Shown here one piece after another: positions 52,155-57,139 of a stretch of 64,000 nucleotides of DNA. The stretch comes from Armatimonadota bacterium (GTDB lineage Bacteria; Armatimonadota; SYMT01). Every line of letters begins with the position of its first letter. The first letter of the stretch is position 1. The DNA lies in NCBI GenBank assembly GCA_046292385.1, contig JBKBRF010000026.1, positions 33,023 to 97,022 of the forward strand, in the 5' to 3' direction. The notes under the pieces are model-generated. The model worked only from the letters and a program-made list of their open reading frames with translations. It did no database searches and was not told the DNA's origin. Position numbers and translations under genes: made by a program.

Positions 52155-52736
52155 ATGAGTGCATTGGAGATGACCGGAGGCGCGGAAGCCGGCCCGGTCG
52201 ACTGCGGCACGCTGCAGCGCGAGCTGCTGCGCGCCGCCACGGATGGGCGGCTGGAGCTGCTGCCGCCAGACGCCGAGCCGGAGGGCGGTCGCCTGATCGC
52301 CGAGCTGCAGGTCCGGGACACCCAGGGCTACGCCGCCGCGCGTGTGGCGATCGCCCAGGCGGCGGAGCTGGCCGGAATGCCGCCGGAGGGGACGACCGAC
52401 CTCCTCCTGGCGACCGGCGAGGCGATCTCGAACGCGATGAAGTACGGCGGCGGCGCGGAGTGCCTGGTCTTCCTGCGCGAAGGCCGCGTGGTGGTGCGGG
52501 TGCGGGATCGCGGCCCCGGGATTCCCACCCTGGACCTGCCGGCGGCGGTACTGCTGCCCGGCTTCTCCACCGCCATCTCCCTCGGACTCGGCTACGAGAT
52601 GATGCTCAAGCTGGTCGACTGCGTGCGCCTGCGCACCGGGCCGGACGGGACCCTGGTCCAGCTCGAGAAGTGGGTGGGAGAGCCGGAGGCGCCGCCGCGG
52701 GAGCCGGACTACTCCCTGGCCACGGCGGCCGCCTGA
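52155..52736 (+). CDS. anti-sigma-factor-like ATP-binding protein (RsbW/HATPase_c_2)
   Basis: EAISNAMKYG, DRGPGI, SLGLGY, GT motifs. Confidence 0.82.
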   Translation: MSALEMTGGAEAGPVDCGTLQRELLRAATDGRLELLPPDAEPEGGRLIAELQVRDTQGYAAARVAIAQAAELAGMPPEGTTDLLLATGEAISNAMKYGGGAECLVFLREGRVVVRVRDRGPGIPTLDLPAAVLLPGFSTAISLGLGYEMMLKLVDCVRLRTGPDGTLVQLEKWVGEPEAPPREPDYSLATAAA

Positions 52737-52760
52737 GGCAACGCCGACCGGTTTCCACCG

Positions 52761-52796
52761 CGCGCCCCTCCGATTCGGAGGGGCGCGTATTTTTTC
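52761..52796 (+). terminator. intrinsic terminator
   Basis: CGCGCCCCTCCGA-T-TCGGAGGGGCGCG followed by TATTTTTT. Confidence 0.8.
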
Positions 52797-52852
52797 TTGA
52801 CGGGCGAGCAAGGGCTTTGATATTAAATACCCGACTTCTCCGATAGGGTATT
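52797..52852 (+). promoter_or_regulatory. promoter plus palindromic Rrf2-type operator
   Basis: TTGACG ... TATTAA, then AATACCCGACTTCTCCGATAGGGTATT (IscR/CymR-like palindrome). Confidence 0.7.
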
Positions 52853-52868
52853 CGGACTTCACTGCTGA

Positions 52869-53327
52869 ATGCTATCAAGCCGAGCGAAATACGCCACCCG
52901 AGCTCTCCTGGACCTGACGATTCACGGCGGCGATCAGCCGATCCCGATCCACGAAACGGCGGAACGACAGGAGATTCCCCTCAAGTTCCTGGAGCAGGTG
53001 ATGCTCTCGTTGAAGCGGCACGGCTTCGTCCAGAGTCGCAAGGGGCCGGGGGGAGGCTATCTGCTGGCGCGGGCGCCGGAGGAGATCACGTTGGGGTCCG
53101 TGGTGCGGGCGATGGACGGTCCGCTGGCTCCGATGAGCTGCGTGAGCGTCTCCGGCTATATGGAATGCGGGTGTCCGGACCCGGAGACGTGTGGGCTGAG
53201 AGCGGCATGGAAGGAAGCGCGGGACGCCCTGGCGGGTGTTCTGGACGGAACGACCTTCGCCGATATCCAGGCGCGATCGGCGCGCCTGCGGGCGGAGCAC
53301 GGCAGCGTGCTGGATTACGTCATCTGA
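52869..53327 (+). CDS. Rrf2-family transcriptional regulator (CymR/IscR-like)
   Basis: YA.RAL, FLEQ, SRKGPGGGYLLA, Cys cluster C..CGC..C. Confidence 0.93.
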   Translation: MLSSRAKYATRALLDLTIHGGDQPIPIHETAERQEIPLKFLEQVMLSLKRHGFVQSRKGPGGGYLLARAPEEITLGSVVRAMDGPLAPMSCVSVSGYMECGCPDPETCGLRAAWKEARDALAGVLDGTTFADIQARSARLRAEHGSVLDYVI

Positions 53328-53338
53328 AGGGCAACGTG

Positions 53339-53509
53339 ATGGACAAGAAGACAGCACCGCGGCCGGAGCGGCCGTCCGCGGAGCCCGAGATTCCCCTGGA
53401 GCGCATCCAGGAAGCGGTCCGCAGCGTCCGCTTCGGGGTGGTGCAGGTGATCATTCAGGATGGGCGCGTGGTTCAGATCGAGCGGACGGAGAAGATCCGC
53501 CTCACCTGA
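53339..53509 (+). CDS. DUF2292 / YezD / OscA-like small protein
   Basis: VRFGVVQVIIQDGRVVQIERTEKIRL signature; sulfur-operon context. Confidence 0.88.
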   Translation: MDKKTAPRPERPSAEPEIPLERIQEAVRSVRFGVVQVIIQDGRVVQIERTEKIRLT

Positions 53510-53559
53510 CCCCTCTCGGGAGTCCCGGTGCTCCGGGTGACCTCCCCAATCTCATAGCG

Positions 53560-53623
53560 GGCTGACCAGACGACTGGAGGCCGGGACTCTCTCGCAGCGG
53601 GCGGGGAGACCCGGCCTTTTCTG
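53560..53623 (+). promoter_or_regulatory. conserved 23-nt RNA hairpin overlapping a terminator, copy 1
   Basis: GGCTGACCAGACGACTGGAGGCC, then AGGCCGGG...CCCGGCCT-TTTCTG. Confidence 0.75.
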
Positions 53624-53673
53624 TCTGGGGCGGTCCCGGAAAGCGGCGCAGACCGCGGCGAAGGGAGTGGAAG

Positions 53674-54723
53674 TTGACACGAGCGAGAGGATGGACGCAG
53701 TTTGCCTGGCCCGCGGCGGCCCTGGGGCTGCTGATCGGCGGGGCGCTGGTGTTTGGACGGATTGAGCCGGAGGTGACCGGCAAGCGAGTCCGCGTGGCGT
53801 TCTTCCCGAACGTGACCCACGCGCCGGCCCTGGCGGCCTCCGCGCGCGGCGAGCTGGACCGGGCGCTGCCCGCGGGCACGTCGCTCGACGTGAAGGTCTT
53901 CAACGCCGGGCCGGAGGCGATGGAGGCGCTCCTGGCGGGGGAGATCGACGTGAGCTACGTCGGGCCGAGCCCGGCGATCAACACCTACCTGAAGTCCGGC
54001 GGCCGGGCACTGCGCGTCCTCGCCGGGGCGTGCAGCGGCGGGGCCGCGCTGGTGGCCCGCGCCGAGGTCCCGATCGCCGCGGTGAAGGATCTCGACGGCA
54101 AGCGGGTGGCGGTGCCGCAGCTGGGTGGGACGCAGGATGTCTCCCTCCGTCACTTCCTGGCGCGGGAGGGGCTGAAGCCCTGGGAGAAGGGCGGCTCGGT
54201 GGAGATCGTCACCGCCAAGAACCCGGATATCCTGGCGCTGATCCAGCGGAAGCAGGTCGACGCGGCCTGGGTCCCGGAGCCGTGGGCGAGCCGACTGGTC
54301 CACGACGCCGGCGCAACGGTGGCGGTGGACGAGCGGTCGCTCTGGGAAGGCGGGCGGTTCACCACCACCGTGCTGGTGGCGCGGACGAAGTTTCTGGAAG
54401 AGCAGCCGGAGACGGTTCAGGCGATCCTTCGCGCCCACCTGCAGAGCATCGACTGGCTCAAGGCGCAGCCGGAGGCAGGCAAGAAGCTGGTCAACGCCGA
54501 GCTGAAGCGGTTGACCGGCAAGGAGCTCTCGGAGCAGGTGCTCGACGAGGCGTGGGCCCGCGTGGAGTTCACTTCGGACCCGCACCAGGCCAGCATCGAG
54601 ACGTTTGCCGACGCGGCGGTGCAGGCCGGCTACCTCCCGCGCGGGAGCAGCGCCCTCGCCGGGTTGTTCCACCTGGAGCCGCTGCAGAACGCCCTCCAAC
54701 GCGTGGCCGTCCGGCCGAACTAG
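53674..54723 (+). CDS. sulfonate/nitrate-type ABC substrate-binding protein (SsuA-like)
   Basis: FFPNVTHAPA, FNAGP, YVGPSP, PQLGGTQD, WVPEPW motifs. Confidence 0.9.
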   Translation: MTRARGWTQFAWPAAALGLLIGGALVFGRIEPEVTGKRVRVAFFPNVTHAPALAASARGELDRALPAGTSLDVKVFNAGPEAMEALLAGEIDVSYVGPSPAINTYLKSGGRALRVLAGACSGGAALVARAEVPIAAVKDLDGKRVAVPQLGGTQDVSLRHFLAREGLKPWEKGGSVEIVTAKNPDILALIQRKQVDAAWVPEPWASRLVHDAGATVAVDERSLWEGGRFTTTVLVARTKFLEEQPETVQAILRAHLQSIDWLKAQPEAGKKLVNAELKRLTGKELSEQVLDEAWARVEFTSDPHQASIETFADAAVQAGYLPRGSSALAGLFHLEPLQNALQRVAVRPN

Positions 54724-54734
54724 GGAGCCTCACT

Positions 54735-55589
54735 ATGGCAAAGCTATCGATCCGAAATGTCTCCAAGCGGTTCCAGGGCCGCAGCGGCGAGGTCCACGCG
54801 CTGGAGAACGTCTCCCTCGACGTTCAGGACGGGGAGCTGCTGGTGCTGGTGGGCCCCTCCGGCTGCGGAAAGTCGACCCTCCTCAACCTGATCGCGGGGC
54901 TGGACCGCGCGGATGCCGGCGAGCTGCTGGAGGACGGGCGGAAGATCACAGGACCGGGCCGGGACCGCAGCGTGGTGTTCCAGGACGGGGCGCTCTTCCC
55001 CTGGCTGACGGCGCGGGGAAACGTGGAGTTCGGGCTGAAGCAGATGGGCCTGCCCCGGCGGGAGCGGACCGAGCGGGCGGACCACTTCCTGCGGATGGTC
55101 CACCTGGGCAACTTTCGGGACAGCTACCCGCACGAGCTCTCCGGGGGCATGCGGCAGCGGGTGGCGATTGCCCGGGCGCTGGCGCTGGAGCCGGAGGTGC
55201 TGCTGATGGACGAGCCGTTCTCCGCGCTCGACGCCCAGACGCGCGAGGACCTCTACGGGCAGCTCGTGGAGATCTGGGAGGAGACGGGGAAGACGATCGT
55301 CTTCGTGACACACAACGTCCGGGAAGCGGTCTGTCTGGCGAACCGGGTGGTGCTCTTCTCCGCCCACCCGGGGCGGGTGGCGGCGGAGTTCCCCGTCTAC
55401 CTGGACCGCCCCCGGTTCCCGGACGACTCGGACGTGGCGCGGCTGGCGCAGGAGATCTCTCACGCCCTCCGGGGCGACCGGAAGCGCGACCCGAAGCGGG
55501 CGCGCAGGAGTGAAATCGATGCAGAGTGGGATCTGGCGGCGGGTGATCTTCTTCCTGCTGCTCCTGGGAGCGTGGGAGACCGTTTGTAG
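54735..55589 (+). CDS. ABC ATP-binding protein (SsuB/TauB-like)
   Basis: GPSGCGKS, LFPWLT, LSGGM, MDEPF, VTH motifs. Confidence 0.93.
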   Translation: MAKLSIRNVSKRFQGRSGEVHALENVSLDVQDGELLVLVGPSGCGKSTLLNLIAGLDRADAGELLEDGRKITGPGRDRSVVFQDGALFPWLTARGNVEFGLKQMGLPRRERTERADHFLRMVHLGNFRDSYPHELSGGMRQRVAIARALALEPEVLLMDEPFSALDAQTREDLYGQLVEIWEETGKTIVFVTHNVREAVCLANRVVLFSAHPGRVAAEFPVYLDRPRFPDDSDVARLAQEISHALRGDRKRDPKRARRSEIDAEWDLAAGDLLPAAPGSVGDRL

Positions 55590-56283
55590 GCTCGGTGTCT
55601 GGGAAGCGACGCTCTTCCCGTCGCCGCTCCAGGTGCTGCAGTCGCTCTGGCGGACGATCGAGGACCGCTCGCTGCTGCTCGCCACCGGGGTGAGCCTGCG
55701 GCGGATCCTGATCGGCTACGGCCTCTCCCTGGTACTGGGAGTGACGCTGGGCGTGCTGCTGGCGCGCTTCCGGTGGCTGGACGAGACGGTCGGCTCGCTG
55801 GTGATGGGGCTGCAGACGCTGCCGAGCATCTGCTGGCTGCCGCTGGCGCTGCTCTGGTTCGGGCTCAACGACCGGGCGATCCTGTTCGTGATCGTGATGG
55901 GCTCGCTCCTGGCGGTCACCGTGGCGGTGCAGGACGGGGTGCGCAACCTGCCGCCGGTCTACTTCCGGGCGGCGCAGACAATGGGCACGCGGCCGCTGGC
56001 GCTCTACACGCAGGTGTTGATCCCGGCCTCGCTGCCCGCGATCCTCACCGGCGCGAAGCTGGGCTGGTCGTTCGCCTGGAGATCGCTGATGGCCGGCGAG
56101 CTGCTCTTCGTGAGCATGGGGCTCGGCCACCTGCTGATGATGGGCCGCGAGCTGGCGGACATGAGCCAGGTGATGGCCGTGATGCTGGTGATCGTGGCGC
56201 TCGGGCTCCTGACTGACCGCGCCATTTTCGGAGCGCTGGAGCAGCGCGTCCGGGAGCAGTGGGGGCTCTCCCACTCCGGATAG
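55519..56283 (+). CDS. ABC permease (SsuC/TauC-like)
   Basis: [28 protein letters not shown] motifs. Confidence 0.92.
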
Positions 56284-56298
56284 GACCGTTTACAAGCT

Positions 56299-56363
56299 GG
56301 CTGACTCGACGACGAGAGGCCCTGCCCCGAAGGCATTCGGGACGGGGCCTCTCCCGTTTTCTG
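56299..56363 (+). promoter_or_regulatory. conserved 23-nt RNA hairpin overlapping a terminator, copy 2
   Basis: GGCTGACTCGACGACGAGAGGCC, then GAGAGGCCC...GGGCCTCTC-CCGTTTTCTG. Confidence 0.75.
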
Positions 56364-56386
56364 TGCTGAAGAAAGGAACCGTGACC

Positions 56387-57139
56387 GTGATTTACCGACG
56401 TCTCCGCAGCCGGGGTTTCACCCTGATCGAGCTGCTGGTGGTGATTGCCATCATCGCCATCCTCGCCGCAATTCTCTTCCCCGTCTTCGCCCAGGCCCGG
56501 GAGAAGGCGCGGGCGACCCAATGCCTCTCCAACGTGCGGCAGCTCGGGAGCGCCTACATGATGTACCTGCAGGACTTCGACGAGACGTTTCCGCCGCACG
56601 TGACGGAGCGCACCGCGCCGCCCGGAACGCCGGACACGCTGGAGGGCCGCGCGCCGTTCACCTACAAGACCAAGCTGCAGCCGTACGTGAAGAACGCGGA
56701 GGTCTTCCGGTGCCCTTCCGCCCCGAAGTGGCCCGACGCCGCCCCGGGGCGCTGGTACACCACCGACTACGGGAACAACCACAACGAGGCGAACCTGGCC
56801 TCGGCGAGCCAGCGGGCGTGGTACCAGGCGAACCCGGACTTCGGCTTCAACGAGACGACCACCCTGGCGACGCTGGCCGCTCCGGCGCAGTTCATCCTGC
56901 TGGGTGACGCGGGCCGCGCGAGCGGGCTCCCCTCCCGGGGCGGCATGTATCCGCAGCCGTGGGTCTTCAACGATGCCGCCCTGCCGGACGGCCAGCAGCA
57001 GGCCCGCTTCCTGCCGCGTCACCTGGGCGGCGGGCACATCGCCTACGCCGACGGCCACGTGAAGTGGACCCGGCCGGAGAAGACGTTCCGCACGCTGCTC
57101 GACAACGACTGGCGCCGGAACCCTTCCCCGGGTCTGTAG
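56387..57139 (+). CDS. DUF1559 prepilin-type N-cleavage/methylation protein
   Basis: [33 protein letters not shown]...C.SN; C-terminal H-X9-DG. Confidence 0.92.

Follow-up and report, generated by a model that had tools for sequence, protein, structure and literature searches.

The locus considered here raises the question of what decides between two RNA folds that occur twice in a single sulfur operon. It belongs to a bacterium of the phylum Armatimonadota (lineage SYMT01) and lies in a stretch of 64,000 nucleotides (assembly GCA_046292385.1, contig JBKBRF010000026.1, positions 33,023 to 97,022 of the forward strand), which we call the window and from whose first letter positions are counted. 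A preliminary description of this DNA had reported a 23-nt hairpin, present in two spacers of an operon that contains a small DUF2292 protein and ATP-binding cassette (ABC) transporter genes, and had proposed that the DUF2292 protein binds it to allow read-through of overlapping terminators. We find that the 23-nt motif is a real, widespread and uncatalogued cis-regulatory RNA family, and consider which factor is likely to read it. The elements in the window, with scores from covariance model (CM) R1, are:

53560-53582, + strand: motif copy 1, candidate antiterminator hairpin GGCTGACCAGACGACTGGAGGCC, 38.4 bits; stem P1 GGCU/GGCC, internal loop GA/A, stem P2 CCAG/CUGG, loop ACGA
53576-53624, + strand: terminator 1, predicted intrinsic; 5' arm GGAGGCCGGG in the 3' half of the motif, then UUUUCUG
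56299-56321, + strand: motif copy 2, candidate antiterminator hairpin GGCTGACTCGACGACGAGAGGCC, 38.0 bits; P2 is CUCG/CGAG
56314-56364, + strand: terminator 2, predicted intrinsic; 5' arm GAGAGGCCCUG in the 3' half of the motif, then CCGUUUUCUG

Both copies are found on the + strand where the preliminary description had placed them. They are identical at 19 of 23 positions and differ at positions 8, 9, 16 and 17; as it had claimed, these four differences make up two compensatory pair changes in the 4-bp stem (C-G to U-A and A-U to C-G), and the flanks of the two copies are unrelated. A pattern of the motif allowing up to three mismatches matches the window only at these two sites, with 0.18 expected, and two of 100 window shuffles contained at least two such matches. 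With up to two mismatches, they are also the only sites in the 7.04-Mb genome. Folded alone with RNAfold, each copy adopts the structure ((((..((((....)))).)))), at −12.2 kcal/mol for copy 1 and −10.8 kcal/mol for copy 2. The 4-bp stem with its ACGA loop is as first described, but the proposed UGA/AG internal loop and GGC/GCC closing stem need revision: U4 also pairs with G20, making P1 four base pairs long (GGCU/GGCC) and leaving GA/A as the internal loop. In relatives, U-G at this pair is exchanged with C-G. The 3' half of the motif holds GGAGG or GAGAGG, resembling a Shine-Dalgarno (SD) sequence.

The 5' arm of the terminator consists of motif positions 17 or 18 to 23 at both window copies. 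With 40-45 nt of downstream sequence added, the terminator hairpin is the minimum-energy fold at both, its stem being followed by UUUUCUG; the minimum free energy (MFE) is −35.3 kcal/mol for 53555-53625 (terminator 1) and −37.5 kcal/mol, with z = −3.9, for 56294-56364 (terminator 2). Both have the G+C-rich stem and U tract of an intrinsic terminator. Because the 3' half of the motif doubles as the 5' arm of the terminator, the two folds are mutually exclusive; RNAfold shows this shared half at both copies, in agreement with what had been proposed. Judged by the computed energies, the terminator should win over the hairpin if unaided. The anatomy fixes the sense of the switch, with the terminator as the default state and read-through resulting from whatever keeps the hairpin closed. 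This overlap is general: among protein-anchored instances (see below), 18 of 24 CM matches of at least 27 bits have a terminator that uses the motif 3' end by a crude MFE criterion, and at least two of the six misses resemble terminators by eye. In every true instance with enough flanking sequence, the terminator starts at the motif GGCC, and after the GGCC at the end of its 3' arm come Us.

The hairpin is conserved, and its stems covary, in other genomes. Both copies recur, with the same 2739-nt spacing and the same two stems, in G007, a bacterium from a different family of the order, in which UCAA replaces the ACGA loop. Paired stem variants found phylum-wide are CUUG/CAAG, CCCG/CGGG, CCUG/CAGG and CCGG/CCGG. 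A free-loop scan of the genome collection returned at least 121 stretches, mostly chance matches in high-G+C genomes; with one mismatch allowed in 401 genomes, the reversed control of the free-loop pattern also matched, and the CM was used for counts instead. Among the matches listed, instances outside the phylum are two in a metagenome-assembled genome (MAG) of Candidatus Methylomirabilis, three in one Rokuibacteriota MAG, two in a second, unpublished Rokuibacteriota MAG (G402) and one in a Geobacteraceae MAG. The motif with covarying stems recurs in Armatimonadota, Geobacterales, Methylomirabilis and Rokuibacteriota.

Alignment A1 and model R1 have 25 rows, including L097 and L098 from G402, which otherwise contributes only a DUF2292-like match (see below). 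The rows of A1 were chosen for pairing, so its covariation figures are circular; unbiased figures come from a protein-anchored sample of 80 metagenome loci, which were picked by DUF2292 sequence alone, the RNA being looked for afterwards. The CM is short (26 positions), and single weak matches are therefore unreliable. In the 184,776 bases of the anchored loci, R1 gave 48 matches at E ≤ 1 (42 distinct rows), all 48 on the strand of the DUF2292 gene. Their alignment is fitted to the CM and the sequences are related, so the following figures support the structure and are not probabilities: 98.1% of cells are paired, compared with 87.4% after shuffling and 24-56% when the partner is slid, and both-sided changes are seen in five of the eight pairs. 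Genome-specific loop "dialects", considered as a sign of co-evolution, were rejected, as loops differ within genomes (UCCC, ACGC and ACAA in G068).

Loci from other subfamilies of DUF2292 have variants without P1, with CCGAC...GGAGG as flanks and often with hairpins in tandem, and a start codon stands close behind in place of the terminator. In this wider family, the conserved letters are mostly those of the flanks, (C/U)GAC and GAGG, and the enclosed stem covaries freely. As far as can be judged from sequence, such a pattern of conserved flanks and a free stem resembles a protein-binding site more closely than a ligand pocket.

A search of Rfam 15 in 52500-57000 at E ≤ 10 yields nothing credible for the motif: the only rows overlapping it, mir-9230 (E 2.5) and b55 (E 6.1, − strand), are at chance level. 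At gathering scores, the whole window contains one tRNA only. The motif is, as the preliminary description had supposed, not a named RNA family. No account of the hairpin or of an RNA partner of OscA was found in the searchable literature, a scope that leaves out subscription journals. The guanidine-II (mini-ykkC) riboswitch consists of two hairpins, each with a conserved ACGR loop. Identity with it was rejected, as relatives of the motif have the loops UCAA, ACAA, ACCA, AAAA and UCCC and usually form a single hairpin.

The RNA is closely tied to DUF2292. A fully paired core hairpin (pattern GA-CNNG-loop of 3-6-CNNG-A[AG]G) lies on the gene strand within 160 nt after the DUF2292 stop codon in 38 of the 77 anchored loci with at least 100 nt of downstream sequence. 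The controls gave none in 77 reverse complements and none in 74 upstream stretches, and shuffles predict 0.11. When matches to the pattern are taken in the anchored loci without demanding pairing, 39 of 40 are fully paired. Related genomes are not independent, and co-occurrence is given as counts. Among 151 genomes of the window's phylum, CM matches with E < 0.002 occur in 12 and weaker ones in six, and PF10055, the Pfam entry for DUF2292, in 13. All 12 genomes with strong matches encode DUF2292, the thirteenth PF10055 genome (G037) being a 29-bit outlier; none of the 138 DUF2292-negative genomes in this sample has a strong motif match. The weaker matches (G016, G036, G081, G114, G120 and G150) were dismissed as chance, having no terminator and lying in apparently coding sequence. 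The motif is found within about 130 nt 3' of DUF2292 in ten of the 15 genes of this sample. In the order Geobacterales (101 genomes centred on G403), the motif is present in 32 genomes at E ≤ 0.05 and in 16 at E < 0.002, and DUF2292 in 46; 30 of the 32 and all of the 16 also have DUF2292. The co-occurrence that the preliminary description looked to is found in both groups, with the hairpin usually directly downstream of the gene.

In two genomes (G004 and G056), motif and DUF2292 are on separate contigs, making the link more than physical adjacency. Two others (G401 and G404) have no PF10055 match at E ≤ 0.01, yet the open reading frame (ORF) directly 5' of the motif has DUF2292 as its sole Pfam match, at sub-threshold scores of 13 and 12.8 bits, respectively, and G402 has a DUF2292-like relative at 19.6-19.8 bits. 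By these sequence comparisons, hairpin and DUF2292 stay associated even where the protein has diverged to scores under the Pfam cut-off. The order that recurs is DUF2292 first, the hairpin with its terminator next and the regulated genes last. As DUF2292 is 5' of the terminator, the protein gene is outside the control of the adjacent switch. In G141, a motif copy is present on each side of the DUF2292 gene. Ribosome-mediated attenuation via the DUF2292 stop codon is unlikely, as the distance from the stop to the CM match varies between about 16 and 256 nt and an upstream ORF is missing for many copies. The outlier in G037 (locus L198, contig C33) is a divergent DUF2292-like ORF of 29 bits, with a consensus −35/−10 promoter before it and a long hairpin-terminator after it; no sulfur gene was recognised among the few neighbouring ORFs viewed, which were not scanned with Pfam. 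This suggests that the DUF2292 family pairs with terminators beyond sulfur metabolism.

The other features of the operon are as follows:

52840-52855, strand not assigned: candidate Rrf2 (CymR-like) operator CCGATAGGGTATTCGG, a near-palindromic box 5' of the Rrf2-DUF2292 unit
52869-53327, + strand: Rrf2-family transcriptional regulator (PF02082, 136 bits; NCBIfam rrf2_super above cut-off)
53339-53509, + strand: DUF2292 (OscA/YezD-like) protein of 56 residues, candidate trans-acting antiterminator (PF10055)
53674-54723, + strand: SsuA-family aliphatic sulfonate binding protein (NMT1_2, 131 bits)
54735-55589, + strand: ABC transporter ATPase (ABC_tran, 122 bits)
55510-56283, + strand: ABC transporter permease (BPD_transp_1, 83 bits)
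56363-57139, + strand: DUF1559 protein with prepilin-type N-terminus, the last gene, behind terminator 2 (SBP_bac_10 (DUF1559), N_methyl)

These Pfam matches bear out the gene identities first given for Rrf2, DUF2292, the ABC genes and DUF1559. The binding protein also matches TIGR01728 (SsuA_fam) with 214 bits against a cut-off of 163.5, and the DUF1559 protein carries an H-X9-DG C-terminal domain. At 55510-55589, the listed ATPase frame extends about 80 nt into the permease frame; the end of the former or the start of the latter probably differs from the mechanical ORF call. The Rrf2 protein scores below the cut-offs of the CymR and IscR NCBIfam equivalogs. A CCGATA..TAT..CGG pattern has three sites in the 7-Mb genome, the third of which (contig C42) differs in the centre. 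The box in its GGGTAT form, CCGATAGGGTAT(A)TCGG, occurs in this genome only 5' of the Rrf2 gene of the window and at C9:28818-28834 (2319-2335 of locus L286), where it sits in the leader of a cysPTWA-DUF2292 operon, just 5' of a third motif copy. This fits a candidate Rrf2/CymR-type operator shared by two sulfur loci, as judged from the sequence of the box. Just upstream, at 52750-52800, a G+C-rich hairpin followed by UUUUUC gives a weak Rfam match to ctRNA_pGA1 (E 0.025, below gathering); it lies directly ahead of the Rrf2 promoter region, and the simplest reading is an intrinsic terminator for the + strand gene that precedes it.

The DUF2292 protein matches PF10055 over residues 20-55 with 62.9 bits, against a gathering cut-off of 22. 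For the NCBIfam OscA equivalog (NF033785, sulfur_OscA), it scores 40.5 bits, below the cut-off of 85, which marks it, by sequence, as a relative of OscA and not an equivalog. The AlphaFold2 model contains a helix (residues 20-29) and a beta hairpin (33-51), with a mean predicted local distance difference test (pLDDT) score of 82.7. The modelled fold is too small to exist by itself, and the protein probably forms oligomers. A sequence search for solved relatives at E ≤ 1 returned chance rows only; Foldseek gave no match in the PDB at E ≤ 0.001, a wide VIA-align search reached a best Z of 2.5 and the ESM Atlas had no usable match. As modelled, the structure appears neither to help nor to hurt an antiterminator function. 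PMC2996968, which cites Viti et al. 2009, states that Pseudomonas corrugata becomes susceptible to Cr(VI) when oscA is inactivated; oscA clusters with sulfate ABC transporter genes, and exposure to chromate leads to overexpression of the oscA-sbp unit, an effect tied there to sulfate starvation. This phenotype is compatible with an antiterminator. The P. corrugata protein and that of the window share the family and the clustering with sulfate or sulfonate uptake genes; they differ in that the latter falls short of the OscA equivalog.

The genes directly behind the motif form a sulfur regulon, as the preliminary description had led one to expect: SsuA-family and sulfate-type binding proteins with their ABC partners, luciferase-like (SsuD-type) monooxygenases, sulfite reductases and an anaerobic sulfatase maturase with its sulfatase. 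Across several genera of the phylum, prepilin-type DUF1559 (SBP_bac_10) genes repeatedly stand directly behind the motif (56363-57139 in the window; L018, L020, L023 and L168), either within sulfonate ABC operons or next to them, a hint that the DUF1559 proteins include some that bind sulfur compounds while anchored like pilins. The third copy of the window's genome (C9:28869-28895, 5-nt loop, 29.5 bits) is in the leader of an sbp-cysTWA operon, after which come a second paralogue of DUF2292, two hairpins of variant form and a Porin_O_P gene; RNAfold finds no canonical terminator behind this copy. In the same operon (C9:26500-38500, L286), the paralogue is divergent (44.5 bits) and the variant hairpins read CCGAC...GGAGGC, so that the two DUF2292 paralogues of this genome have different hairpin variants 3' of each.

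In Geobacterales, B12-binding corrinoid proteins, CbiM, radical-SAM and NifX-like proteins are encoded behind the motif, which reaches 13 copies per genome (G403). In G403, G415, G462, G480 and others, copies cluster with genes for B12-binding corrinoid, CbiM, radical-SAM, NifX-like and NifH-like proteins. Such clusters may form a sulfur-starvation island for methylated sulfur compounds, with a possible link to nitrogenase-like methylthio-alkane reductases. Separately, a loose pattern scan of the window's genome shows short hairpin-like repeats of the GACGCGAAGGCGCGAAG type on contigs C5, C13, C14 and C30, and a longer unit present three times, about 1.5-1.9 kb apart, at C2:59844-63217.

What, then, keeps the hairpin closed? 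DUF2292 is the best-supported factor, because the motif is almost confined to genomes that encode it, its gene is upstream of the terminator, the tie survives divergence and the flanks of the hairpin are conserved. We therefore favour, with confidence that goes about halfway, the view that DUF2292 acts as an RNA-binding antiterminator in the manner of HutP, beneath a layer of Rrf2 repression. By default, the far more stable terminator would form, ending transcription at two points, behind DUF2292 and behind the sulfonate ABC genes. Under sulfur shortage, the Rrf2 (CymR-like) repressor would leave the promoter and the Rrf2-DUF2292 message would be made. The DUF2292 protein, encoded just 5' of terminator 1, would accumulate and bind the hairpin, with the invariant GGCUGA/GAGGCC region and the WCNA loop as likely contacts. 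The bound hairpin would stay closed, no terminator would form and transcription would read through into ssuABC, then into the DUF1559 gene. The same protein would also act in trans on contig C9, where the cysPTWA-DUF2292-porin operon has the third copy in its leader. Of the antitermination scheme in the preliminary description, the RNA family, the terminator overlap, the sulfur context and the tie to DUF2292 have held up; binding of the protein to the hairpin is suggested by gene order and co-occurrence. We infer the ON direction under sulfur starvation and the Rrf2 layer, and by analogy with HutP, TRAP and PyrR, DUF2292 may need a small-molecule co-effector.

Several observations weigh against DUF2292 as the antiterminator. 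In the phylum sample, three of 15 DUF2292 genes lack a detectable motif directly downstream, and 16 of the 46 DUF2292-positive Geobacterales genomes have no CM match. Conversely, two Geobacterales genomes, G452 and G454, each have one clean motif with an overlapping terminator, in one case before a sulfite reductase gene, and no convincing DUF2292 was found in either by a profile search at E ≤ 1 (no match in G452; one 14-bit match inside a 406-residue open frame in G454), the completeness of the genomes being unstated; these exceptions look genuine. The co-occurrence could simply mirror one sulfur island inherited as a unit. The protein model, a bare helix and beta hairpin, is unlike known RNA-binding folds, and its net charge is only slightly positive. 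Having many copies per genome, a broad phyletic distribution and a coherent regulon is just as typical of riboswitches. An ON riboswitch of very small size, its hairpin stabilised by a metabolite of sulfur shortage (e.g., O-acetylserine or N-acetylserine) or by the absence of a sulfur compound, with DUF2292 a mere member of the regulon, would account for an RNA conserved over at least four phylum-level groups, for up to 13 copies before one coherent set of sulfur genes, for the many copies in 5' leaders distant from any DUF2292 gene and for G452 and G454; the HMP-PP riboswitch (PMC6478431) is an earlier case of a tiny aptamer inside a terminator. The hairpin offers little for a pocket, however, with about three conserved unpaired positions (G5, A6 and A19) and a loose WCNA loop. 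The wider family often lacks P1, conserving only single-stranded flanks, and there is no Rfam family match. A riboswitch would also leave unexplained why DUF2292 is regularly found just 5' of the switch and outside its control (the 38 of 77 loci), and why strong matches are absent from all 138 DUF2292-negative genomes of the phylum sample. We consider it unlikely, though by no means negligible.

The two DUF2292-negative genomes also agree with another trans-acting factor (a protein, a small RNA, or the 30S subunit recognising the SD-like GGAGG) reading the antiterminator, DUF2292 having some other role, such as that of an Rrf2 partner. The GGAGG or GAGAGG in the 3' half of the motif and the adjacency of Rrf2 and DUF2292 in the window's order and at one Geobacteraceae locus would be in keeping with this. 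However, DUF2292 tracks the motif as no other gene does, and its adjacency to Rrf2 is limited to few lineages, whereas the hairpin association extends across phyla; the start codons in the window are 40-90 nt away, so GGAGG is not a working SD sequence there. Another factor is thus rather improbable. Most adjacent copies being in the 3' region of DUF2292, the hairpin might instead be a small dispersed repeat, or else a conserved non-switching structure that serves 3'-end formation, processing or stability at ordinary terminators of DUF2292 messages. This we regard as very improbable: many copies are in 5' leaders behind promoters or operator-like boxes (L005, L031, C9 and Geobacterales) and before unrelated sulfur genes, and the terminator always borrows the 3' strand of the hairpin, so that a stable 3'-end structure cannot hold both; covarying stems and the strict strand bias (48 of 48) argue against a dispersed repeat.

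Antitermination by DUF2292 would have parallels in known systems. HutP of Bacillus subtilis is a small oligomeric protein that binds nascent RNA and prevents termination; it reads UAG repeats and needs histidine. The hut operon shares with the window the order of a regulator gene, a terminator and structural genes, but DUF2292 is unrelated to HutP (PF10055 is its only Pfam match, and it has no solved relative by sequence), and the target here is a 23-nt hairpin used at several operons instead of UAG repeats. The ribonucleic antiterminator (RAT) of BglG, LicT and SacY is likewise an imperfect hairpin of less than 30 nt with an internal loop, its 3' strand forming the 5' arm of a terminator. RAT-type copies flank the bglG regulator gene on both sides, a layout similar to that in G141. 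The RNA sequence and loop differ, however, the regulon concerns sulfur and not sugars, there is no link to a phosphotransferase system, and a Pfam scan of eight ORFs around the motif found no CAT or PRD domains. ANTAR proteins (EutV, AmiR and NasR), PyrR and TRAP resemble the proposed system in that a protein controls the choice between terminator and antiterminator at several sites of a regulon, but none of these protein families is related to DUF2292; ANTAR proteins recognise a pair of hexaloop hairpins, and PyrR and TRAP promote termination. The HMP-PP riboswitch (thiS motif; PMC6478431) is likewise a very compact switch merged with an intrinsic terminator, and it turns genes on by suppressing termination. 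Its metabolite-binding aptamer, however, is inside the terminator stem, whereas the present hairpin and its terminator are alternative folds, and Rfam models do not match the motif. Membership in the HutP, BglG/LicT-RAT, ANTAR or PyrR systems fails on the defining protein domains and RNA features. We are thus dealing with a new RNA family and, if the protein binds as proposed, a new RNA-binding protein family, both using a known principle.

In its broadest form, the proposal is that DUF2292/OscA/YezD proteins, with their core of about 37 residues, are an as yet unrecognised family of RNA-binding antiterminators that, together with the 23-nt hairpin, form a regulon-wide ON switch for sulfur scavenging that works after transcription initiation in at least four phyla, acting as a feed-forward layer on Rrf2/CymR-type repression; for this we see about an even chance. 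If true, a widespread small family known since 2009 only by phenotype, as OscA/DUF2292, would gain a molecular function. Genome annotation would gain an RNA family that it now lacks, and the response to sulfur starvation would turn out to be controlled at the RNA level, too, in phyla about whose regulation almost nothing is known. Consisting of a 23-nt RNA and a protein of 50-60 residues, the system is compact and directly testable, and could serve as a small orthogonal switch. If the hairpin is a riboswitch instead, it would be among the smallest aptamers known, tied to sulfur starvation, and just as notable.

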